NCBI GenBank assembly: GCA_902512415.1 | Contig: CABXJB010000002.1 | Span: forward strand, 1 to 54,626 | DNA from: an uncultured Alphaproteobacteria bacterium | GTDB lineage: Bacteria; Pseudomonadota; Alphaproteobacteria; HIMB59; GCA-002718135 | DNA length: 54,626 bases | Direction: 5' to 3' | Shown here: in pieces, positions 6,539 to 54,626 of the stretch | How positions within the stretch are numbered: position 1 is the first letter of the stretch | How the letters are laid out: every line of letters begins with the position of its first letter | Notes under the pieces: generated by a model | What the model saw: only the letters and a program-made list of their open reading frames with translations | Database searches by the model: none | What the model was told of the DNA's origin: nothing | Program-made: the position numbers and the translations under genes

Positions 6539-6925
6539 TTAAACTCTTCTTCTTTTTCTGGGTCTACATCCATTGTGAGGAATTGGCGTAACATCTTTTA
6601 TTGAAGTTATCATATAACCTATAGCCTGAAGAGATCTTAATGCTGACTCTCTTCCTGAGCCAGGACCGGACACTTCAACTTTTAATGTTTTAAGTCCAAA
6701 TTCCTTAGCTTTGTTTCCCACATCCTCAGCAGCTATTTGAGCGGCATAAGGTGTAGATTTTCTTGAACCTTTAAAACCTTTATGACCTGCAGAAGACCAT
6801 GCTAAAGCGTTACCATTTTCATCAGTGATAGTAATAATTGTGTTATTAAAGGAAGAAACAATATGCGCTACACCTGAGGATAGTTTCTTTTTTATCTTAG
6901 TCTTTACTTTTTTCTTATCTGACAT
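6539..6925 (-). CDS. rpsK: 30S ribosomal protein S11
   Basis: 128 aa with [22 protein letters not shown] and C-terminal [13 protein letters not shown]. Confidence 0.95.
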
Positions 6926-6937
6926 ATTTATCCCCTT

Positions 6938-7318
6938 TTATCCCTTAGTAACTTTTTTCTTTCCAGCAATAGCTACTGCTTTTCCTTTTCTTGTTCTTGC
7001 ATTTGTATGAGTTCTTTGTCCTCTAACAGGTAGTTTTTTTCTATGCCTCAAACCTCTATAACAACCTAAGTCATTAAGTCTTTTTATATCTAATGATATT
7101 TTTCTCCTTAAGTCTCCTTCAACAGTTTGTTTTTGATCAATCAGATCTCTTATTTTGTTAAGTTCATCATCATTCAACTCACTTACTCTTTTTGCAATAT
7201 CAATTGATGCCTCAGAACAAATATCATTAGCTACTTTATTTCCAATACCAAAAATATAAGTAAGGGCTACATTAATTTTTTTATTTGTAGGTATATTTAC
7301 TCCAGAAATCCTTGCCAT
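6938..7318 (-). CDS. rpsM: 30S ribosomal protein S13
   Basis: 126 aa with [10 protein letters not shown] and [27 protein letters not shown]. Confidence 0.95.
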
Positions 7319-7401
7319 TAGTTAAACCTATTTGTAATATGAATGAGGGTGCATACATTAAATAATACACTTAAGTCAAGCTTTGAAATGCTAATTTTCA
7401 C

Positions 7402-7980
7402 CTAATTTTCGCCTTTTTTTATAATTTTCATCAATTCTTTTTGTATATGCAAAACTTCTTGAGAAGCATCAATAGTAAAGTAGTTTTGACTAAAATTATT
7501 ATAAAAAAACTGGGAGACTGGGTAGGTTTCTTTACTATAATTATCTATACGTGTTTTAATTGAATCTAAATTATCATCTGATCTTTTTTCTTTAAGAGAT
7601 CTATGAATTATTCTTTCTTTAACTATTTTGAAATCAATTTTAAAATCAAAGATTAGATCAATAATTATGTTATTATTCTTCATAAAGGATAAAAGGTATT
7701 CTGATTGTGAAATTGTTCTTGGATAACCATCTAATATATAACCTGCACTAGAAACTTTACTTATTAGTTTATTAGATATTATTTGATTTATAATTTTATC
7801 AGAAACTAAGTTTCCCGACGAAATTATTTTCTTTAATTGTTTGGAAAGTTTATCACTATCATCGAATTTATCTCTTAAAATATCACCGGTTGATAAATGT
7901 AAAATATTTAATTTTTTTGCAATTAATTTTGCCTGAGTTCCTTTTCCTGACCCAGGAGGACCAAAAAATATCATTTTCAT
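7402..7980 (-). CDS. adk: adenylate kinase (short-LID type)
   Basis: 192 aa with P-loop GPPGSGKGTQ. Lies between secY and rpsM. Confidence 0.9.
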   Translation of the reverse strand: MKMIFFGPPGSGKGTQAKLIAKKLNILHLSTGDILRDKFDDSDKLSKQLKKIISSGNLVSDKIINQIISNKLISKVSSAGYILDGYPRTISQSEYLLSFMKNNNIIIDLIFDFKIDFKIVKERIIHRSLKEKRSDDNLDSIKTRIDNYSKETYPVSQFFYNNFSQNYFTIDASQEVLHIQKELMKIIKKGEN

Positions 7981-46386: not shown

Positions 46387-46791
46387 ATGTCTGAAAAAGT
46401 AGCTGAAAAATTGATTGATATTGAATCAGTTCAATTCTCTTTCAATAAACACTTTACATTAACTTCAGGTCTTAAATCTCCTGTTTATGTAGATTGCCGA
46501 AAAATTATTTCTTTTATTAATGAAAGAGATTTTATTATGAATGAAGCGATAAACTACATTAACAAAAATATATTAGAATTTGATATAGTCGCAGGAGGAG
46601 AAACAGCTGGAATACCTTATGCTGCAATTATTTCTGAAAAAACTAGAAAACCAATGCTTTACATTAGAAAGAAACCTAAAGGCTTCGGAAAAAACCAACA
46701 AATTGAAGGAAAATTTTATGAAAACCAGAGAGCTATTTTAATTGAAGATTTGGCAACAGATGGAGGTAGTAAAGTAATTTTTGCAATTTGA
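46387..46791 (+). CDS. pyrE: orotate phosphoribosyltransferase, C-terminally truncated (probable pseudogene)
   Basis: 134 aa. FTLTSGLKSPVYVDCR, AGGETAGIPYA and the PRPP motif ILIEDLATDGGSK are PyrE-like. The ORF stops (TGA) about 6 residues after the PRPP loop, whereas PyrE proteins continue for roughly 45-60 more residues. Confidence 0.75.
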   Translation: MSEKVAEKLIDIESVQFSFNKHFTLTSGLKSPVYVDCRKIISFINERDFIMNEAINYINKNILEFDIVAGGETAGIPYAAIISEKTRKPMLYIRKKPKGFGKNQQIEGKFYENQRAILIEDLATDGGSKVIFAI

Positions 46792-47058
46792 AGACTTTGA
46801 GAAGAAATATCACAGCCGTCTATAATTATATTCGTATATTTTTTTTTAGCTCTCCTGCAAACATTCCAGTACCACATGCTAGATCCAAATTTGAATTAAT
46901 TTTTACTTTTATTTTTGATAAAATATTAATAGCCTTTTTAGGGGCCTTATAATTTCAGTTTTTTAAAGTTTGATCATAATTTAAAGCCAATCATCATAAT
47001 ATTTTTCAGTAACAGATTGATTGCCAATACCATCTAATAAAGACTTTATTTTAGTCAT
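46790..47058 (-). pseudogene. decayed class I SAM-dependent methyltransferase (two frame breaks, one TGG-to-TGA, 3' end deleted)
   Basis: The minus-strand ATG at 47058 overlaps the upstream gene's stop as ATGACTAA and reads MTKIKSLLDGIGNQSVTEKYYDDW, followed by the first frame break. The next frame reads ALNYDQTLKN-TGA-NYKAPKKAINILSKIKVKINSNLDLACGTGMFAGELKK (SAM motif I). The second frame break is in an A9 run (46839-46847), then YTNIIIDGCDISSQSLQIAK. Beyond that the DNA is antisense pyrE. Confidence 0.7.
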
Positions 47059-47857
47059 TAAAGATAGCTGGTATTTTATTTCGAAAACTTACAATTTCCA
47101 TTAAATCAATTTTTGTATTCAATATTTTAGGAGTTGATTTAGCTTTGGATACTATTTCCCCCCAAGGGTTTATTAACATTGAGTGTCCATAAGTTTTTCG
47201 ATTAGTATGATGTGTTCCACACATATTAGTTGCTACTATAAACAAACTATTTTCAATTGCTCTAGATCTAAGCATAACTTCCCAATGAGCTTTTCCAGAA
47301 GGTACTGTGAAGGCCGCGGGCATTAAAATTATCTCAGCCCCTTTTTTGGCAAGTTTTCTAAATAAATTTGGGAATCTTAAATCATAGCAAATAGTAAAAC
47401 CTATTTTTACTTTATCTAAATTTAATAAGGAAATATTTTTTCCAGCCTTAAAAGTATCAGACTCCCTATGAGTTTCTTTTTTACTAATATTAACATCAAA
47501 CATGTGTATTTTATCATATCTTTTAACAATCATACCTTTTGTATTAATAAAGTATGATCTGTTAACTAATTTCTTTTTATTTTTTTCCTTTAAAAGAAGG
47601 GAGCCAATATTAATATTTACTTTATTTTCTTTGGCATATATTTTTGCCATACTTATTATTGGACAATTTAATTCATCAGTGGTTTTTTGTTTAAGATAAT
47701 TAGTATCATTGGTTATTATATTAGAACATTCTGGTGTGCATATTAAATTGGGTATAAATTTTTTAGTTTTCTCAAAATATTTTTTTAATAATTTTGCATT
47801 TTCAAAAGGAGTTGATTTAGCCTCAAATTGAATTTGAGAAATTTTTAATTCTTTCAT
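47051..47857 (-). CDS. carbon-nitrogen hydrolase (nitrilase superfamily, Nit/omega-amidase-like)
   Basis: 268 aa with catalytic Glu-Lys-Cys contexts TPECS, YDKIHMFD and FTICYDLRFP. Confidence 0.8.
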   Translation of the reverse strand: MKELKISQIQFEAKSTPFENAKLLKKYFEKTKKFIPNLICTPECSNIITNDTNYLKQKTTDELNCPIISMAKIYAKENKVNINIGSLLLKEKNKKKLVNRSYFINTKGMIVKRYDKIHMFDVNISKKETHRESDTFKAGKNISLLNLDKVKIGFTICYDLRFPNLFRKLAKKGAEIILMPAAFTVPSGKAHWEVMLRSRAIENSLFIVATNMCGTHHTNRKTYGHSMLINPWGEIVSKAKSTPKILNTKIDLMEIVSFRNKIPAIFND

Positions 47858-47864
47858 TAATAAC

Positions 47865-48848
47865 TTACCAGCGTGAATGTATGTCGTCTTTTAATTTAGT
47901 ATTATATAAATTTTCAATTTTTTTCATTAAACCATTAATATTTGGTAATGATGAGGCTGAAATATTTTGCAGGGCTTGATCAGAATTTTTGGCTCCTGGA
48001 ATAATTACACTTACTTCGTCGTGCATTAAAATCCATTTTAGCGCAATTTGAGATAAAGAAAAACCTTCTGGAATAATTGATTTTAATTCTTCAACAACAT
48101 CAAGAGCTTTATTAAAATTTACACCTGAAAATGTTTCACCAACATCAAAAGCGCCTCCTTTAATATTATAATTTCTGTGATCAGTAGCAGGAAAAGTAGA
48201 GCTGGAATTCATCTTTCCAGTTAAAAGTCCACTTGCTAGTGGCACTCTAACAATAATAGCTATATTTTTTTCTTTAGCTATTTTAAAAAATTCTTCAGCT
48301 GGCTTTAATCTAAGCATATTAAAGATAATCTGCACACTTTTTGTATGAGTTCTATTAATACATTCTATTGCTTCTTCTACCGTTTCAACACTAAATCCAT
48401 AATGTTGTATTTTGCCTTTTGTGACCAGATGATCTAACATCTGATAAGTTAAATCATGGGAATATACTTCTGTTGGGGGGCAGTGCATTTGTAAAAGATC
48501 AATAGTCTCTAATTTAAGATTCTTTAATGATCGATCAACAAATGACTCCATTAAATCTTTATCATAATATCCTTCAGCTTCATGAGGATTAATTCTACGT
48601 CCTGCTTTAGTAGCAACATATATTCTTTCTGAAGTTGAATTTATAAATTCTCCAACAAATTTTTCACTTCTTCCATCTCCATAAACATCAGCAGTATCAA
48701 AAAAATTGACACCATTTTCAAAAGAAGTTTTCAAAACATTTTTTGCATTCTCTTCAGAAACTTCACCCCAATCAGCACCCATAGCCCAACACCCAAGACT
48801 TATCTCACTAATATCCCAACCAATTTTTCCAAATTTTCTTTTTTTCAT
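47865..48848 (-). CDS. aldo/keto reductase
   Basis: 327 aa with LGCWAMG, FFDTADVYGDGRSE, LQMHCP and IPGAKN motifs of the AKR fold. Confidence 0.85.
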   Translation of the reverse strand: MKKRKFGKIGWDISEISLGCWAMGADWGEVSEENAKNVLKTSFENGVNFFDTADVYGDGRSEKFVGEFINSTSERIYVATKAGRRINPHEAEGYYDKDLMESFVDRSLKNLKLETIDLLQMHCPPTEVYSHDLTYQMLDHLVTKGKIQHYGFSVETVEEAIECINRTHTKSVQIIFNMLRLKPAEEFFKIAKEKNIAIIVRVPLASGLLTGKMNSSSTFPATDHRNYNIKGGAFDVGETFSGVNFNKALDVVEELKSIIPEGFSLSQIALKWILMHDEVSVIIPGAKNSDQALQNISASSLPNINGLMKKIENLYNTKLKDDIHSRW

Positions 48849-51010
48849 TAATTTATAGATATTTCATTTGTGCACATTGTACCGTCCTCAGCAACTATAC
48901 CGGCTCCACCAGTTTTAAAAGTATTATTACTATCTTCTACTTCAATTATTAATTTTCCATCTACATATCCTTTAATTTTATTATCAATAACTTCAAGTTT
49001 AAGATCATAATCAGTAAAGAATTCAAAATTAAAATCAATTTCCTTTAATGTTTCTAATTCATAATACATTTTTGCTATCCGTAACTTATTTTCTGAGGTA
49101 ACTTCGAGAGCATAGTATCTTTTAAGGCCTTGAACTCTTGCTATTATGCCACCAGATTTAACTAAGTGAAAATTAAGCTTTGATGAAACTGAATAGTTTT
49201 TCCATTTATCATTACCTGTAAAAACAACACCTCTACCAATATTTTGAGTTATTCTAAATGGCTCTTTCCATCTAGACTCCCATTTATCTATTGCTTGAAC
49301 AAAGTTGTTCTTCCACATATCTCCATAGAATTGAGTATCTTGAGAAACCCCTCTTTTAGGATTTGCAATATGGTCAGGCTTTTTAAAAGTTATTTTTGGC
49401 TCACCAAAAATATCAAGGTAATTTATTATTAACTTTCCGGATACTTTCTCTGAAGAAGAGATAGATATACCAATTTGTGCAATAGGGTTAGAGCCTGTAT
49501 CAGGAACATCCCATTCAATATCTTTACTTTCATTATTATGAAAAAAGAATTCCTCTGAATTTAATTTGATTAATTTATCATTTTCTCCCCAATATTTAAC
49601 AAATAATTTTGCAATTATATCTTTATTGGAATTTGAAATTAATTGAGTTTTTATTTTTTGACCTGAATAAACTATAGGGCAAGATATAAAGTCATAATGA
49701 AAAAATCTCTCCCTTGCCATACCCTCAAGCTTAGTTAAATCCTCAGGAAAGAAAGTGTCTACGTAGCACTCACTAGATAAACCATTAGATAAATCATTAA
49801 ATTTTATTTCAAGAGCACGTTCTCCAATCTCCGATTTATATTCAATATTTGATATAAATGTTGAAGGATTATTGTCATCCAAATCATTTACTTTCCATGA
49901 TTGAGTCGACTCAGGAAGATTAAAATGGTATCTAGCACCATTCTTCACTATTACATCCCCTTTTCCCTCTAAGTTTCTTGCTGTGTTAATAATCTTATAT
50001 GACTCTGTAAGCGCATCAGTTATTGTTTCACCACCAATTGCTGTTGGGCAATAAATGGTATCATTGATGGGTGATAAATAATCTGGACCTGTTTTAAGAC
50101 CTGCTAACCCATTTTTGATCCCTAAAATGCAACCTACATTACCTGAATTACAATCAGTATCCCAACCAGCTGTATTAACAATCATCAAAGTTTTTTGAAA
50201 ATCATCATCTCCAAATAATAATGACATAATGATAAGTGCATGATTTGGAACCATATGACAATTACCTAAGTATTTATCGTACCCATATTTACCTGCAATT
50301 TTTTCTCTTGCTTGTTCCCAATCAATATTTCCAGCACTCCAATCTTGAATATCAGAAATTAATTTAAAAATTGTTGAGTCTTTTGGAATAAATCTTTTTG
50401 ATTCGTTAATAATCTTACTTATGTCTTTTTCAACAAAAGCTAAGGCTTCCATAGCTGCAATCATTTGTGCTCCGTATACTGCCTCACCATCATGACTTAC
50501 ACTTCCTGCTTCTTTAGCTAGTTTAACAGCCTGCTCAGGATTGCCAGGTGATACTAAAGCCCATCCATCTATAAATATCTGAGCGCCAATTTGCTCTGCT
50601 ACTGTTTTTCCATTCATAGCGATTGAACCACTCTCCGGTGCGTGAATACCTTGTTTTAAATTTTGATATGCAGTGTCTTCAGTGGAATTTCCTTTACCAC
50701 CCCACCACAGTATTGTTCTATCTTCTATCAGATTGTTCAACCAAGTTTGACCAATCTGTTTTGCTGTAATATTTTTATCATAATTAAAGTCACGAAGTGC
50801 TCTTAAAAAAGTAAAGGTTCCAGTTATATCATCATCCGTAACACAAATAGGTTGCTTAAGTTTGTCATTAACATAATAATTTATTGGACCTAACTCCTCC
50901 ATTATTCTCTCATAAGTCCAACCTTCAAAAGGTCTTCCTAAATAAACACCAATAATTTTTCCTAAAACGCCAGCATATACTTGTTCTTCATATTGTTTAT
51001 CTAATTTCAT
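48848..51010 (-). CDS. ADP-ribosylglycohydrolase-fold enzyme fused to ~375 aa of beta-sandwich (ConA/LamG-like) domains
   Basis: 720 aa. Residues ~1-345 carry both ARH metal-site motifs (VTDDDITG at 57-64, GWDTDCNSGNVGCILG at 282-297). Residues ~565-720 look like a ConA-like jelly roll (WKNYSVSSKLNF...GGIIARV...YYALEV...KLEVIDNKIKGYVDGKLII...GGAGIVAEDG...). Confidence 0.7.
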   Translation of the reverse strand: MKLDKQYEEQVYAGVLGKIIGVYLGRPFEGWTYERIMEELGPINYYVNDKLKQPICVTDDDITGTFTFLRALRDFNYDKNITAKQIGQTWLNNLIEDRTILWWGGKGNSTEDTAYQNLKQGIHAPESGSIAMNGKTVAEQIGAQIFIDGWALVSPGNPEQAVKLAKEAGSVSHDGEAVYGAQMIAAMEALAFVEKDISKIINESKRFIPKDSTIFKLISDIQDWSAGNIDWEQAREKIAGKYGYDKYLGNCHMVPNHALIIMSLLFGDDDFQKTLMIVNTAGWDTDCNSGNVGCILGIKNGLAGLKTGPDYLSPINDTIYCPTAIGGETITDALTESYKIINTARNLEGKGDVIVKNGARYHFNLPESTQSWKVNDLDDNNPSTFISNIEYKSEIGERALEIKFNDLSNGLSSECYVDTFFPEDLTKLEGMARERFFHYDFISCPIVYSGQKIKTQLISNSNKDIIAKLFVKYWGENDKLIKLNSEEFFFHNNESKDIEWDVPDTGSNPIAQIGISISSSEKVSGKLIINYLDIFGEPKITFKKPDHIANPKRGVSQDTQFYGDMWKNNFVQAIDKWESRWKEPFRITQNIGRGVVFTGNDKWKNYSVSSKLNFHLVKSGGIIARVQGLKRYYALEVTSENKLRIAKMYYELETLKEIDFNFEFFTDYDLKLEVIDNKIKGYVDGKLIIEVEDSNNTFKTGGAGIVAEDGTMCTNEISIN

Positions 51011-51016
51011 ATTAAC

Positions 51017-51862
51017 CTACCCTTTCGAAGCTCCACTTGTTAGTCCAGCAATAAATCTTCTTTGAAAAAACATAAATAAGATAACAATTGGTGCCATCAT
51101 CATTACTGCGGAAGCATTTACTAATCCCCAGTTATTTTCAAATCTACTTTGAAAAGCAAATAGAATTGTTGCTATTGGTTTTTTTGAATCATCATGAACA
51201 AAAGTTAAAGCAAATAAAAATTCATTCCACACAGCCAAACCTACTACTAAACCTGTTGTTAAAAATACTGGCCATGAGATTGGTAATGCTATCCTATAAA
51301 AAAGTTGTAACGTATTTGCTCCATCGATTTTTGCTGCATCAAATAATTCATCTGGTAATTGAATCATGTATGAGCGAATTAAAAAAGTTGCAAAAGGAGC
51401 ATTAAGTCCTGCGTAAATAATTATTAATCCGAGATGAGTATTCATTAAACCGAATTCTTTCCACATTAGGAAAAGTGGTAAAATGAACATTTGTGCAGGA
51501 ATTGATACTCCGACCAACAAATAGACTAGAAAGGCATTTGATCCACGAGGATAAAGTTTTGCTAAGCTAAATCCTGCTAATCCTGAAACGGTCAAATTTA
51601 AAATTAGAGTACCAATTACTAATTTTGAAGAATTTAAAAAAATTTGCGCATATTCTCCCATTATCCAAGCATCTACAAAATTTGCCAATCTTATAGTAAT
51701 TGGAAAACCAAATGGGTTTATTCCAAATTCTTCTTGAGGCTTAATTGAATTAAAAAAAAGCAACATGATTGGCAAAATACAAGTTAAAGCTAAAATTGTT
51801 AAAATAGTGTAATTTGATACTAGTTCTCTTTTTCTATATTTAGCTACAATCATATTTCCCAC
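51017..51862 (-). CDS. carbohydrate-type (CUT1) ABC transporter permease, MalG-like
   Basis: 281 aa with six TM segments and EAA loop DELFDAAKIDGANTLQLFYRIALP. Confidence 0.85.
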   Translation of the reverse strand: MGNMIVAKYRKRELVSNYTILTILALTCILPIMLLFFNSIKPQEEFGINPFGFPITIRLANFVDAWIMGEYAQIFLNSSKLVIGTLILNLTVSGLAGFSLAKLYPRGSNAFLVYLLVGVSIPAQMFILPLFLMWKEFGLMNTHLGLIIIYAGLNAPFATFLIRSYMIQLPDELFDAAKIDGANTLQLFYRIALPISWPVFLTTGLVVGLAVWNEFLFALTFVHDDSKKPIATILFAFQSRFENNWGLVNASAVMMMAPIVILFMFFQRRFIAGLTSGASKG

Positions 51863-52728
51863 CCAAGTTTTCTAAGTACTCCAAAAATACTGACAATAAA
51901 AATTGTATATATGAACATTAATGTTCCAATTGCTGATGAATATCCAACATTAAACCTATCAAAAGCTTGCGAATATAAATTAGTTGCTAAAACTTCTGAA
52001 GAGTAAGCAGGACCACCTTGAGTTAAAATCCAAACATAATCAAATGTTGGTATAGACCAGATAATAATGATCATTATAGAAAAAATAAAAATTGGCCTTA
52101 TTAGTGGTAAAGTTACAAATCTAAATTTTTGAAACTTTGTTGCTCCTTCAATATCTGCAGCTTCATACAAACTATTATCAACTTGATACATGCCAGTTAT
52201 ATAAATTACCACTAGGAATCCCCAGAAATGCCATCCATCAACAAAAGCAACTGCGTAAAGTGAGGTTTCTTTCATAGTAAAAGGTGAAACTGCAGGTATC
52301 AAATCTATTCCCTTACTATTGAGCCATGCCGGTAATCCATAAAGAGGATGAAAAATGTATTTCCAAATTTGACAACTAATTATACTTGCTAACATGTAAG
52401 GAAAGAAAAAACATAATCGAAAAAGCATTTGTCCCTTCGTAATACCTGTAAGCAAATAAGCACAAGTTAATGCCAATGCAATTGGAACGGTTAAAAATAA
52501 ACAAGTCCAAATAATATTATGCCAAACAGCTTTTTTAAAATAACGATCATCAAATAATTCGTAAAAATTTTCAAATCCGACATAATTGATTTTTCCAAAA
52601 CCATTCCAATCAGTCAGGCATAAAGCAAGACTTAATAGAGATGGTAATGCTACCACCATAAAGTGAACAGCTAAAACAGGTAAGATAAAATACCATGCTA
52701 TAGAATTTTTACTAAAAAATATGCTCAT
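51850..52728 (-). CDS. carbohydrate-type (CUT1) ABC transporter permease, MalF/UgpA-like
   Basis: 292 aa with EAA loop NSLYEAADIEGATKFQKFRFVTLP. Overlaps the second permease gene by 13 nt. Confidence 0.85.
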   Translation of the reverse strand: MSIFFSKNSIAWYFILPVLAVHFMVVALPSLLSLALCLTDWNGFGKINYVGFENFYELFDDRYFKKAVWHNIIWTCLFLTVPIALALTCAYLLTGITKGQMLFRLCFFFPYMLASIISCQIWKYIFHPLYGLPAWLNSKGIDLIPAVSPFTMKETSLYAVAFVDGWHFWGFLVVIYITGMYQVDNSLYEAADIEGATKFQKFRFVTLPLIRPIFIFSIMIIIIWSIPTFDYVWILTQGGPAYSSEVLATNLYSQAFDRFNVGYSSAIGTLMFIYTIFIVSIFGVLRKLGWEI

Positions 52729-52742
52729 TCTTGGAAATATAT

Positions 52743-52766
52743 ATAGCGAGGCATTAGCCTCGCTAT
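52743..52766 (-). terminator. intercistronic 10-bp perfect stem-loop between the SBP and permease genes (attenuator or mRNA-stabilising element)
   Basis: atagcgaggc-atta-gcctcgctat: perfect 10-bp stem with a 4-nt loop, lying 13 nt after the SBP stop and 14 nt before the permease ATG. It is followed by an only modestly U-rich tail on the minus strand. Confidence 0.55.
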
Positions 52767-52778
52767 TATTAAGTTAGT

Positions 52779-54101
52779 TTATCTTGCGCCAACAGGAAGA
52801 AGCTCTCCTTTTTTACGAGCTTTATCCCACATTTTTTGGTGATCGTACATGTAGTCTTCTACAGATATATCACCAGCCCAAACTACTTCCATATCTTTCC
52901 AAATATGTACGCCTGGATCAGCTGGCCAAAAAGTCCATGTGGTGTATCCGTAATCTCCTTTTCCAGTAGCTTCTGCAAAATCAACTAGATACCTTTTAAC
53001 CTGAGGGCTCACATCATTTCTAATATCATCTGCTGAAAAATACAATGGAACAACAAACTCTCCAAAATTAAAATCTGCAGCCATATCAAGTACAATTTTT
53101 TTGTTACTGAATATAAAGTCAAAAACTTTAGCAGCAGCATCTGGATCTCCTGAAGATGCATTTATTGACATTGTAGTTCCTAAAGCAAGCAAATATGCTG
53201 GATCAGCTCCACCATCTCTTAAAACAGGGAAAGGAGCCCAATCCCATTCATCTGAAGAGTCTGCAAAACCTGCAGCTGTAGCTCCAAATGTCCAGGTACC
53301 AATTGTCATCATTGCAGCCCCTCTTGAAGCAAACATTGCATGAAAATCATCCCAACCAAGAGCGTAATAATTTTCAAGGCTACCTGACCAATATCCATCA
53401 TCAACCATATGTTTTCTAAGAAGTTCTACAGCTCCTACAAATTCAGGATCTGTCCAATCTTTTTCACCAATAAGAGCTTTATAAACATTATCAGGTCCTG
53501 CATAACTATTTAGATACATACCTGCTAAATGTTCGTGTGTTGGCTGCCATCCTGTTGAACCATATGCAAATACATTCATACCTGCAGCTTTGATTTTACT
53601 AGCAACATCTTCATACTCACTTAAAGTTGTAGGAACTTTCCAACCATTTTCTTCAAACAATGTTTTGTTATACAACATAATCATTGTTTCAAATGTTTTA
53701 GGTGCTGAGTAAAACTCTCCATTAAATACTCCAGCTTGGTAAGACCAAGGCAAAAGCTTGTCTTCCCATCCATATTGACTTGAATATCCTTGCATAGACT
53801 TAAGCAGTCCAGCTTCTTGATATTCTTTTACGTAAGACGGACCTGGAGTTTCAACTATATCTGGTCCTTCACCTGAAAGCATTGCAGTTCTTAGAATATC
53901 ATTTAATCCTTCCTTGAACTCCATCACTAATTCAATATCATTTTGTGAAGCATTAAATGCATCAACGAGCTTTGCCTCAAACACTGGATCTCTATTTGCA
54001 TTTGTTTCTGCCCACCAAGTTACGGTTGTCTTTGCAAATACGCTAAAAGAATTAAGTGAAAAGATAGAAGCAACAAATACTATAAATAATTTTTTAATCA
54101 T
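52779..54101 (-). CDS. ABC transporter extracellular solute-binding protein, family 1 (sugar/glycoside type)
   Basis: 440 aa with signal peptide MIKKLFIVFVASIFSLNSFSVFA. The aromatic-rich mature protein resembles CUT1 binding proteins. GGAGGT lies upstream of the ATG. Confidence 0.85.
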   Translation of the reverse strand: MIKKLFIVFVASIFSLNSFSVFAKTTVTWWAETNANRDPVFEAKLVDAFNASQNDIELVMEFKEGLNDILRTAMLSGEGPDIVETPGPSYVKEYQEAGLLKSMQGYSSQYGWEDKLLPWSYQAGVFNGEFYSAPKTFETMIMLYNKTLFEENGWKVPTTLSEYEDVASKIKAAGMNVFAYGSTGWQPTHEHLAGMYLNSYAGPDNVYKALIGEKDWTDPEFVGAVELLRKHMVDDGYWSGSLENYYALGWDDFHAMFASRGAAMMTIGTWTFGATAAGFADSSDEWDWAPFPVLRDGGADPAYLLALGTTMSINASSGDPDAAAKVFDFIFSNKKIVLDMAADFNFGEFVVPLYFSADDIRNDVSPQVKRYLVDFAEATGKGDYGYTTWTFWPADPGVHIWKDMEVVWAGDISVEDYMYDHQKMWDKARKKGELLPVGAR

Positions 54102-54169
54102 TTTACCTCCAATTAAACAATTATCTAATTATTCAATAATGAATTATAAAATATTCAAGAATGATATAA

Positions 54170-54187
54170 AACTTATTATAATAAGTT
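54170..54187. promoter_or_regulatory. 18-bp perfect palindrome, candidate HutC/GntR-type operator upstream of the transporter operon
   Basis: AACTTATTATAATAAGTT is perfectly self-complementary. It sits at the regulator's stop codon, ~70 nt upstream of the SBP ATG, and a TATAAT hexamer lies on the minus strand at 54143-54148. Confidence 0.35.
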
Positions 54188-54626
54188 ATTGATAATGATT
54201 TTCAACTTTTAATGGTTTAACGGTTATTTCCTGATCAATTAGGACCAGTTTACTTGATATATCATACATATACCAAATGTTTGAAATTGCTGGATGACCA
54301 TGAGTTGTTGTGAATAAATCTGCGTCATTGTTACTCAATGATATCGCAGAAACCTCTTGTTCGCTTTTACTAATTTTAATTTTAAATTTATTGATGAGAA
54401 CATTCAATAAATTTTTATCTTTAAAAATGTTTTTATTTACGTTCTTTCCAATAATTTCAATTGGAATGTATGCTCTGCTAATCAAATATATTTCATTATT
54501 TTTTATTCGTCTGAGTCTTTTTATATAATAGAGCGATCTAGAACTTTTAAATTTTTTACTAAAATTATTTTTAACCACTTGTACATCTAAAAGTTTATAA
54601 TCAGCATTCAATGTTACAGAAAAATC
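54186..54626 (-). CDS. GntR/HutC-family transcriptional regulator, C-terminal UTRA effector domain (N-terminus beyond the window)
   Basis: The reading frame is open to the right edge; the track's M at 54611 is a TTG inside the frame. The pattern ...RLRRIKNNEIYLISRAYIP... and the alternating beta/alpha layout fit a UTRA domain. Confidence 0.6.
   Translation of the reverse strand, partial: DFSVTLNADYKLLDVQVVKNNFSKKFKSSRSLYYIKRLRRIKNNEIYLISRAYIPIEIIGKNVNKNIFKDKNLLNVLINKFKIKISKSEQEVSAISLSNNDADLFTTTHGHPAISNIWYMYDISSKLVLIDQEITVKPLKVENHYQ

Follow-up and report, generated by a model that had tools for sequence, protein, structure and literature searches.

To our knowledge, every characterised enzyme of the ARH fold (ARH1, ARH3, DraG) cleaves a ribosyl bond. 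Two described systems place genes of this family beside transporters. The yegTUV operon of Escherichia coli, which combines the transporter YegT, the ARH-family protein YegU and the PfkB kinase YegV, still had no assigned function in 2024 (PMC10819704). The rus polysaccharide utilisation loci of Bacteroidetes bring ARH-family genes together with ribokinases and transporters, the proposal being that they liberate ribose from unidentified nutrients that contain it (10.1101/574913). Here, we analysed a stretch of 54,626 nucleotides from an uncultured alphaproteobacterium (contig CABXJB010000002.1 of assembly GCA_902512415.1), referred to below as the window, which appears from its sequence to hold something new: a sugar-type ATP-binding cassette (ABC) operon whose putative hydrolase is a three-domain ARH-fold protein of 720 amino acids. 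This protein and its full-length family are designated ARH720, and no characterisation of the family or of its substrate was found in open-access PMC and bioRxiv.

Seven intact or window-truncated genes lie in a row on the minus strand (open reading frame (ORF) listing; Pfam and NCBIfam scans), in the order UTRA-domain regulator, family-1 solute-binding protein (SBP), two permeases, ARH720, aldo-keto reductase (AKR) and C-N hydrolase (CNH), followed by the remnant of a methyltransferase (MTase) gene. The co-directional row of eight genes described in an earlier note on this DNA is therefore real, with a pseudogene as its eighth member, and its coordinates and junctions were reproduced from the ORF coordinates (+84, +50, -13, +6, -1 and +7 nt from regulator to CNH). 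Pfam matched all of the expected domains, namely UTRA, SBP_bac_1, BPD_transp_1 (twice), ADP_ribosyl_GH, Aldo_ket_red and CN_hydrolase, and, as had also been noted, no glycoside hydrolase, sugar-kinase or isomerase domain was found in the seven proteins with Pfam or NCBIfam. ARH720 is the only candidate bond-cleaving enzyme and occupies the position usual for a glycoside hydrolase: classical CUT1 glycoside operons are organised on identical lines, with regulation by LacI or GntR proteins, a hairpin that follows the SBP gene and an ATPase gene located in cis in some lineages and in trans in others, but their catalytic slot holds a CAZy glycoside hydrolase, whereas an ARH-fold metal enzyme takes it here. 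We hold, with somewhat better than even confidence, that this flexible genomic island serves to take up and cleave a small soluble glycoside, most probably a riboside or an oligosaccharide containing ribose.

The pairing of importer and ARH720 is conserved, and ARH720 is the only enzyme of the minimal module. Related loci were inspected as 22-kb stretches (labelled L001 and so on), among which those from low-GC alphaproteobacterial genomes are called SAR11-type, a label inferred from composition and synteny. The order SBP-permease-permease-ARH720 was found in 24 of 24 assessable related SAR11-type loci from single amplified genomes (SAGs) and metagenome-assembled genomes (MAGs). When permeases at least 40% identical and within 2.5 kb of ARH720 were counted, the same order was present in 31 of 55 loci of other lineages, including a Rhodobacteraceae SAG, another alphaproteobacterial MAG, many Chloroflexota and a Cellvibrionaceae MAG. 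The chromids of Rhizobium sp. 11515TR and R. jaguaris carry a closed operon, LacI-SBP-permease-permease-ARH720-MalK, with unrelated, oppositely oriented genes on either side, in which ARH720 is the sole enzyme (gene content inferred by tblastn and Pfam, the PLSDB records being unannotated). Agrobacterium sp. 33MFTa1.1 has ARH720-ugpC beside an IS6 element, and Anaerolinea thermolimosa also carries the module. The linkage of importer and ARH720 put forward in the earlier note thus holds over several phyla. ARH720 was located in GTDB species genomes at no fewer than 593 loci, and full-length relatives number in the thousands in metagenomes, whose protein collections yielded 7672 homologue clusters at E<=1e-5, several of them with hundreds of member sequences.

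A further arrangement was seen in Enterobacter hormaechei (CP103578.1; L164 7966-12425), where LacI-ARH720-SBP lies between chiP/chiQ and glnS and the ARH720 and SBP genes overlap by 4 nt. No permease genes are listed for this locus, and the "plasmid" record to which it belongs holds pgm, seqA, fur, glnS and nagE, which are of chromosomal type.

In SAR11-type genomes the order is HpcH (opposite strand), an optional GntR regulator, SBP, two permeases, ARH720, AKR, a major facilitator superfamily (MFS) gene, CNH and MTase, with ARH720 present in one, two or four tandem copies. Four tandem paralogues of 719-734 aa, about 60-65% identical, occupy positions 5592-14347 of L001, from one streamlined genome, and tandem paralogy was also noted for L006, L007, L008, L011 and L019; other genomes have two copies or one. 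The paralogues form old, distinct clades, the single copy of the window grouping with L005 and the single-copy loci, which suggests diversification towards related substrates.

ARH720 (48848-51010, minus strand) matches ADP_ribosyl_GH (PF03747) over residues 14-306 (E=1.8e-53, 182.5 bits vs a cut-off of 26.2). Its AlphaFold2 model (pLDDT, the predicted local distance difference test, 84; pTM, the predicted template modelling score, 0.89) contains three domains: an all-alpha ARH-fold catalytic domain assigned by Pfam and Foldseek (residues 1-345, 49976..51010), a middle beta-sandwich with pLDDT mostly >90 (residues about 350-545, 49376..49963), and a concanavalin-type lectin domain resembling carbohydrate-binding module (CBM) 66 and DUF1080, recognised by Foldseek and by profile (residues about 570-720, 48851..49303). 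Target-normalised Foldseek template modelling (TM) scores for the ARH domain were 0.65-0.78, reaching 0.78 with MJ1187, 0.68-0.72 with ARH3 and 0.69-0.73 with DraG. With these proteins and ARH1 it shares the all-alpha fold and the conserved acidic motifs of the dimetal site; the canonical ARHs differ in that they lack the beta-sandwich and CBM66-like domains, which together extend ARH720 by about 375 residues, and in that ARH720 has Cys for Thr/Ser in one motif. The context differs as well, being nutrient uptake for ARH720 and reversal of protein modification for the canonical enzymes. No signal peptide is evident in ARH720, the Pfam match already starting from residue 14, and the protein is for this reason taken as cytoplasmic.

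The arrangement of beta-sandwich and lectin domain resembles galactocerebrosidase, tandem CBM22 and galectins in Foldseek searches; in galactocerebrosidase (GALC, GH59), too, a beta-sandwich and then a lectin domain follow the catalytic domain, and the C-terminal domain of ARH720 has a weak Pfam match to Glyco_hydro_59_C. That domain agrees with the CBM66 of Bacillus subtilis levanase SacC (4azz, 4b1m, 4b1l) at TM 0.82-0.84 and a root-mean-square deviation of 1.7-1.9 in Foldseek, and the ARH720 family profile also matches the levanase CBM66 chains by sequence (hmmsearch, E=1.5e-5); the fold is the same, the difference being that in ARH720 it is attached to a cytoplasmic ARH domain. The Pfam 3keto-disac_hyd model gave no match to the ARH720 of the window. 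When the C-terminal 375 aa were searched against 1.84 billion representatives, a stand-alone C-terminal module was considered and rejected: matches of 360-420 aa start inside the ARH domain and are gene fragments, while longer ones are partial ARH fusions, and P0213, the one differing architecture sampled, matches through generic DUF1080 domains alone. The two-domain C-terminal module is therefore essentially confined to ARH720.

A phmmer search of the Protein Data Bank (PDB) with ARH720 returned no match, and the family profile found the CBM66 chains alone and no ARH entry, so YegU and a second, small (~377 aa) YegU-like ARH (cluster c22), encoded between permease and ARH720 in L042, L051, L063, L066, L067 and L077, served as bridges for residue mapping. 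The motifs of ARH720 align with GxxxE, TDD and DxD[T/S] of these two proteins. Across 98 ARH720 sequences from several phyla, E29, D60, D61, D284, T285, D286 and C287 are invariant, position 58 is T or S in 97 of 98 and position 59 is D in 97 of 98. The motif D284-C287 (window 50150-50158) reads D-T-D-C, as opposed to the canonical D-x-D-T/S, which is DTDT in YegU and DNDS in the c22 ARH. Such conservation is consistent with hydrolytic activity at a dimetal site, which ARH720 would then be predicted to possess.

Comparison with yegTUV gives a mixed picture. The likeness pointed out in the earlier note stands at the level of architecture, as in both cases a transporter and an ARH-family protein are placed under a GntR-family repressor (YegW, also called GgaR, in E. 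coli), but it does not extend to the ARH proteins themselves: ARH720 and YegU share only a 39-aa local match (E=4e-4), and ARH720, with its two extra beta-domains, is not a YegU orthologue. The small c22 ARH aligns with YegU at full length with 26% identity (E=3e-25), and the PfkB kinase next to ARH720 in Chloroflexota is 26% identical to YegV. A PfkB kinase is part of yegTUV and of 14 Chloroflexota ARH720 loci, whereas the window has none; YegT is an MFS nucleoside:H+ symporter, whereas the transporter of the window is of the ABC type; and the effector and phenotype reported for GgaR (ADP-glucose, glycogen) have no counterpart at the window locus. The rus loci rely on SusC/D outer-membrane systems, RusT permeases and ribokinases, in contrast with the CUT1 ABC importer and ARH720 of the present module, and their ARH proteins are not described as three-domain fusions (10.1101/574913), which ARH720 is.

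The importer consists of an SBP and two permeases. The SBP gene (52779-54101, minus strand) encodes a family-1, CUT1-type periplasmic protein (SBP_bac_1, E=2.3e-26, 93.9 bits) with an N-terminal signal peptide readable in the translation (N-terminus MIKKLFIVFVASIFSLNSFSVFA, followed by KT). Orthologues with 33-66% identity lie upstream of ARH720 in many loci, and among solved structures the protein is closest to SBPs for xylo-oligosaccharides (4g68, 3vxb and 8xba, with E about 1e-20 to 1e-17). In the SAR11 strain HTCC1062 only one sugar-binding SBP was identified experimentally, a glucose-specific one (SAR11_0769, 8HQQ; PMC11485210), and the SBP of the window is distant from it (E=1.8e-8 only). 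The first permease (51850-52728, minus strand; BPD_transp_1) is MalF/UgpA-like, with UgpA and GlcT as best NCBIfam models, below their cut-offs; its identity to the corresponding permeases is 66-98% among SAR11-type and other alphaproteobacterial loci, against 43-52% for those of Chloroflexota. The second (51017-51862, minus strand; BPD_transp_1, E=2.5e-18) is MalG/UgpE-like, matches the GlcU, UgpE and MalG models and is conserved beside ARH720.

The absence of an ABC ATPase from the locus, also remarked on in the earlier note, was borne out: no homologue of a MalK/UgpC/MsiK-type ATPase was found by tblastn in the whole 54.6-kb window or in the 10-kb flanks of SAR11-type loci. Since malK or ugpC adjoins ARH720 in other alphaproteobacterial loci (L028, L026, Rhizobium and Agrobacterium), its absence here is a trait of the lineage, and the importer is presumably energised here by an ATPase supplied in trans.

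Directly 3' of the SBP stop lies a GC-rich hairpin followed by a T-rich stretch (52743..52766, minus strand), with a stem of 10 bp including 6 G-C pairs and a predicted fold of -18.5 kcal/mol. Its position, though not its sequence, is kept in nine loci (L001, L002, L003, L006, L012, L015, L017, L026 and L028), and T-runs follow several of these SBP-permease spacer hairpins. Internal attenuators are common in ABC operons, and the hairpin is likely a partial terminator or an mRNA stabiliser giving an excess of SBP. The earlier view of the genes after the regulator as effectively one transcription unit is accordingly qualified by this element, the operon probably having an internal attenuator.

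The regulator gene (54186..54626, minus strand) is cut by the end of the window, which contains 146 aa of a GntR/HutC-type protein with a C-terminal UTRA effector domain (E=4.7e-10, 39.9 bits vs a cut-off of 23.8), the expected N-terminal helix-turn-helix (HTH) domain lying beyond. It shares 77% identity with its complete, 229-aa counterpart in L012, which has full-length matches to the TreR, HutC and PhnR models from residue 1 and an HTH that aligns with that of E. coli YegW. A UTRA regulator is present solely in the window and L012, the other SAR11-type loci being without it and other phyla using LacI, and is thus an optional part of the island. The region between regulator and SBP genes (54102..54185, minus strand) is a candidate promoter/operator of the transport operon, having a sigma-70-like match at 54170-54143 (TTTATA/TATAAT, 10/12), with a second at 54205-54178; both are consensus matches alone. 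With Rfam gathering thresholds, tRNAs alone were detected in the window, L001 and L012, and no riboswitch upstream of the SBP gene.

The AKR gene (47865-48848, minus strand; Aldo_ket_red, E=4.5e-63, 213.5 bits) encodes an AKR11-like protein with the catalytic tetrad D51, Y56, K81 and H122, whose nearest structures are IolS and YhdN and which reached no NCBIfam equivalog cut-off. It lies directly after ARH720 in 24 of 24 SAR11-type loci that extend to this point, whereas no other lineage has it there, so that its linkage to the pathway, as proposed earlier, holds for SAR11-type genomes only, where it belongs to the island. The adjacency of transporter, ARH and AKR is far beyond chance, while CNH and MTase merely flank them. 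The island may also include the MFS gene, which the window lacks.

Taken as a mechanism, the periplasmic SBP would capture a glycoside, which the MalF/MalG-like permeases would import, powered by a MalK/MsiK-type ATPase encoded elsewhere in the genome. Cytoplasmic ARH720 would hydrolyse the glycosidic bond at the dimetal centre of its ARH domain, and the beta-sandwich and CBM66-like domains may help to bind the sugar or the aglycone. In Chloroflexota, the freed sugar would be phosphorylated by the adjacent ribokinase or PfkB kinase, whereas in SAR11-type cells AKR might reduce or oxidise the carbonyl of one product, whether free aldose or aglycone, acting as an aldose reductase, an aldose 1-dehydrogenase or an aglycone reductase. 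The optional MFS protein may move a product, and the operon of the window would be controlled by its GntR/HutC (UTRA) repressor, a role that LacI would have elsewhere. The idea of import followed by cleavage, as first put forward, thus gains from the conserved importer-ARH720 pair, but loses the amidase as a pathway member.

Among sugars that ARH720 might release, ribose is the foremost candidate because several lines agree with it. Three Chloroflexota kinases in different gene arrangements (L030, L031 and L036) pass the ribokinase equivalog at 333-373 bits vs 299.65. Within a single Chloroflexota clade (labelled Phototrophicaceae, Aggregatilineales or Anaerolineae), 11 loci have a PfkB kinase directly downstream, and the best, sub-threshold matches of these kinases are to ribokinase and ribose-1-phosphate kinase models. 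An inosine-uridine (IU) nucleoside hydrolase lies directly downstream of ARH720 in one locus, and the co-occurrence of the c22 YegU-like ARH with ARH720 hints at two sequential ribosyl-bond cleavages. Together with the known chemistry of ARH enzymes, this brings ribose close to, if a little short of, an even chance of being the sugar released. A ribokinase label for all 14 members of kinase cluster c12 was considered and dropped, the equivalog cut-off being passed by L030, L031 and L036 alone.

A number of observations weigh against the proposed riboside module. The ribokinase threshold is met in only 3 of 55 non-SAR11 loci, the other 11 kinases scoring 62-84 bits, which leaves room for another sugar, and in the islands of SAR11 type there is no kinase at all. 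Adjacent transporters are missing from one large Chloroflexota/Armatimonadota clade of ARH720. In the enzyme itself, the invariant C287 stands where the canonical Thr/Ser follows the second metal-binding Asp, and the D-T-D-C motif may, from its sequence, signify a different metal chemistry or preference. Residues 100-150 (window 50561-50710) are nearly invariant across phyla yet have a pLDDT <55 in the model, and may constitute a mobile substrate lid.

The best-placed alternative keeps the same import-and-cleave module and changes the sugar, probably to a furanose (fructo-, arabino- or xylo-configured) or to a hetero-oligosaccharide. CBM66 binds terminal fructofuranose, and it is this module that the C-terminal lectin domain resembles; the nearest solved relatives of the SBP bind xylo-oligosaccharides; and in Deinococcus aetherius ARH720 stands among a GH2 gene, an SBP, a permease, a BNR/ricin protein and a GH63-like gene, a context of generic glycan utilisation. 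On these three grounds a sugar other than ribose is quite possible, and release of another glycosyl group is to be reckoned with as a minority outcome. Most loci are, moreover, without a ribokinase, 11 of the 14 adjacent kinases being PfkB proteins of undefined specificity. Set against this are the ribosyl bonds cleaved by all characterised ARH-fold enzymes, the true ribokinases in three independent gene arrangements and the single nucleoside hydrolase, while the undefined PfkB kinases, too, score best with ribose-related models; on balance we regard this alternative as rather unlikely, if one to be taken seriously.

A second alternative makes ARH720 a regulatory or repair de-ADP-ribosylase of proteins or nucleic acids, similar to DraG, ARH3 or Tri1, in which case its adjacency to a transporter would have no metabolic meaning. 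Membership of the Pfam family ADP_ribosyl_GH and the conserved metal-site acids would fit such a role, as would the sizeable transporter-less clade, which is found in mixed contexts (RtcB, GNAT and esterase genes). The synteny with an orthologous CUT1 importer and LacI across phyla and the closed Rhizobium operon argue otherwise, as do the lectin/CBM-like domains carried by the enzyme, the presence of one to four tandem paralogues in a streamlined genome and the sugar kinases adjoining ARH720; with no ADP-ribosyltransferase partner in any examined locus, we consider this explanation improbable. The weakest alternative, the full model of the earlier note, in which the whole eight-gene row is one pathway whose amidase processes an amide-bearing aglycone, draws on the +7 and -8 nt junctions and on there being no detectable terminator or promoter between AKR and CNH, but is hardly tenable and already contradicted, as CNH and (except in L083) MTase stand directly beside HpcH without the island in L083, L086, L087 and L090 and have an M24 peptidase as neighbour in L084, most genomes with the island have an MFS gene between AKR and CNH, no non-SAR11 module contains CNH or MTase, and MTase is a pseudogene in the window and L082.

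Read-through co-transcription from AKR into CNH is nonetheless likely, given the tight junctions and the lack of a detectable terminator or promoter. The claim that the amidase is wired to the pathway falls, while the caveat attached to it, that amidase and methyltransferase could be an unrelated pair packed against the operon, proved correct. CNH (47051-47857, minus strand; CN_hydrolase, E=2.1e-48, 165.3 bits) is a flanking gene encoding a Nit1-like protein with the E43, K116 and C157 motifs of a Glu-Lys-Cys triad. Its best NCBIfam match, below threshold, is deaminated glutathione amidase; it scores 197.7 bits vs a cut-off of 500 with NF043013 and 138.5 vs 355 with NF033621, and from its sequence it looks like a Nit1-type housekeeping amidase.

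Island-free contigs were recovered by a metagenome scan with CNH. In L086, L087 and L090, HpcH on the minus strand lies directly beside CNH on the plus strand, followed by MTase; in L083, HpcH (minus) and CNH (plus) are likewise adjacent, with neither island nor MTase. The empty slot between HpcH and CNH measures about 70-100 bp in these four metagenomic contigs, in L084 it holds the M24 gene, which is Xaa-Pro-peptidase-like (6784-7875), and in L088 and L089 the island. The common backbone of these contigs comprises ABCF, HpcH, the slot, CNH, MTase, a DtxR-like gene, ArsP and aroA, and because it is shared by contigs with empty sites, HpcH, CNH and MTase belong to the core genome flanking the island, and the space between HpcH and CNH is a variable insertion point, at which no integrase, tRNA or obvious repeat was seen. 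Membership of the HpcH aldolase in an oxidative pentose route was rejected on the same ground, as this backbone gene is also present at empty sites.

The MTase pseudogene remnant runs from 47058 down to about 46790 on the minus strand and was delimited with the undamaged MTase of L001 (207 aa) as tblastn query. It contains two frameshifts and an in-frame stop, and about 100 of 207 codons are left: residues 1-24 and 27-74 lie in two frames with the in-frame stop and residues ~75-100 in a third, after which comes pyrE in antisense. L082, the CNH of which is 84% identical to that of the window, has an 84-aa MTase remnant without S-adenosylmethionine (SAM) motif I (1219-1473), and the gene is missing in L083 (4115-5319). 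The MTase beside CNH is thus decaying independently in related lineages.

In the region 46387-47058 of the window, the pyrE gene on the plus strand stops at 134 aa, 11 residues past its phosphoribosyl pyrophosphate (PRPP)-binding motif, and the remainder was not found in any frame. The truncated gene abuts the 3' end of the convergent MTase pseudogene at about 46790, where relatives have DtxR-like, ArsP and aroA genes. Either a deletion or rearrangement removing both 3' ends or a chimera of assembly or multiple displacement amplification (MDA) accounts for this junction.

Elsewhere, a second CUT1 set and a gamma-glutamyltranspeptidase (GGT) gene (cluster c25) were seen upstream of the SBP gene in L060, L063, L068, L070, L072 and L073, all of one Chloroflexota clade (labelled Phototrophicaceae, Anaerolineae or Chloroflexota), which may represent lineage synteny or a functional link. 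The GGT and Gfo/Idh/MocA genes near some Chloroflexota loci were not used as evidence, occurring in few related loci (about 4-5 each) and being attributed to lineage synteny.

In a bolder form, the uptake-and-cleavage reading would make ARH720 the founder of a new class of metal-dependent ARH-fold glycosidases, acting as the sole catalytic component of an uptake module in Alphaproteobacteria, Chloroflexota, Deinococcota and Gammaproteobacteria, with AKR, with or without the MFS protein, handling the freed sugar or aglycone in SAR11-type cells, which show no adjacent kinase; this we put forward as a tentative proposal. The closed operon in Rhizobium, which is culturable and genetically tractable, makes the question directly testable.

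SAR11-type bacteria, the dominant bacterioplankton of the surface ocean, possess very few sugar transporters. The presence of the island in many single-cell genomes, together with the abundance of ARH720 homologues, indicates that it marks a substrate important to a sizeable part of the population. If the tentative proposal is true, the ARH fold would extend from the reversal of ADP-ribosylation to ordinary nutrient catabolism, and ARH720 could help to explain both yegTUV of E. coli and the ARH genes of the Bacteroidetes ribose-utilisation loci. The four tandem paralogues kept in streamlined SAR11-type genomes would then point to ribosylated dissolved organic compounds as an unrecognised resource of the surface ocean.

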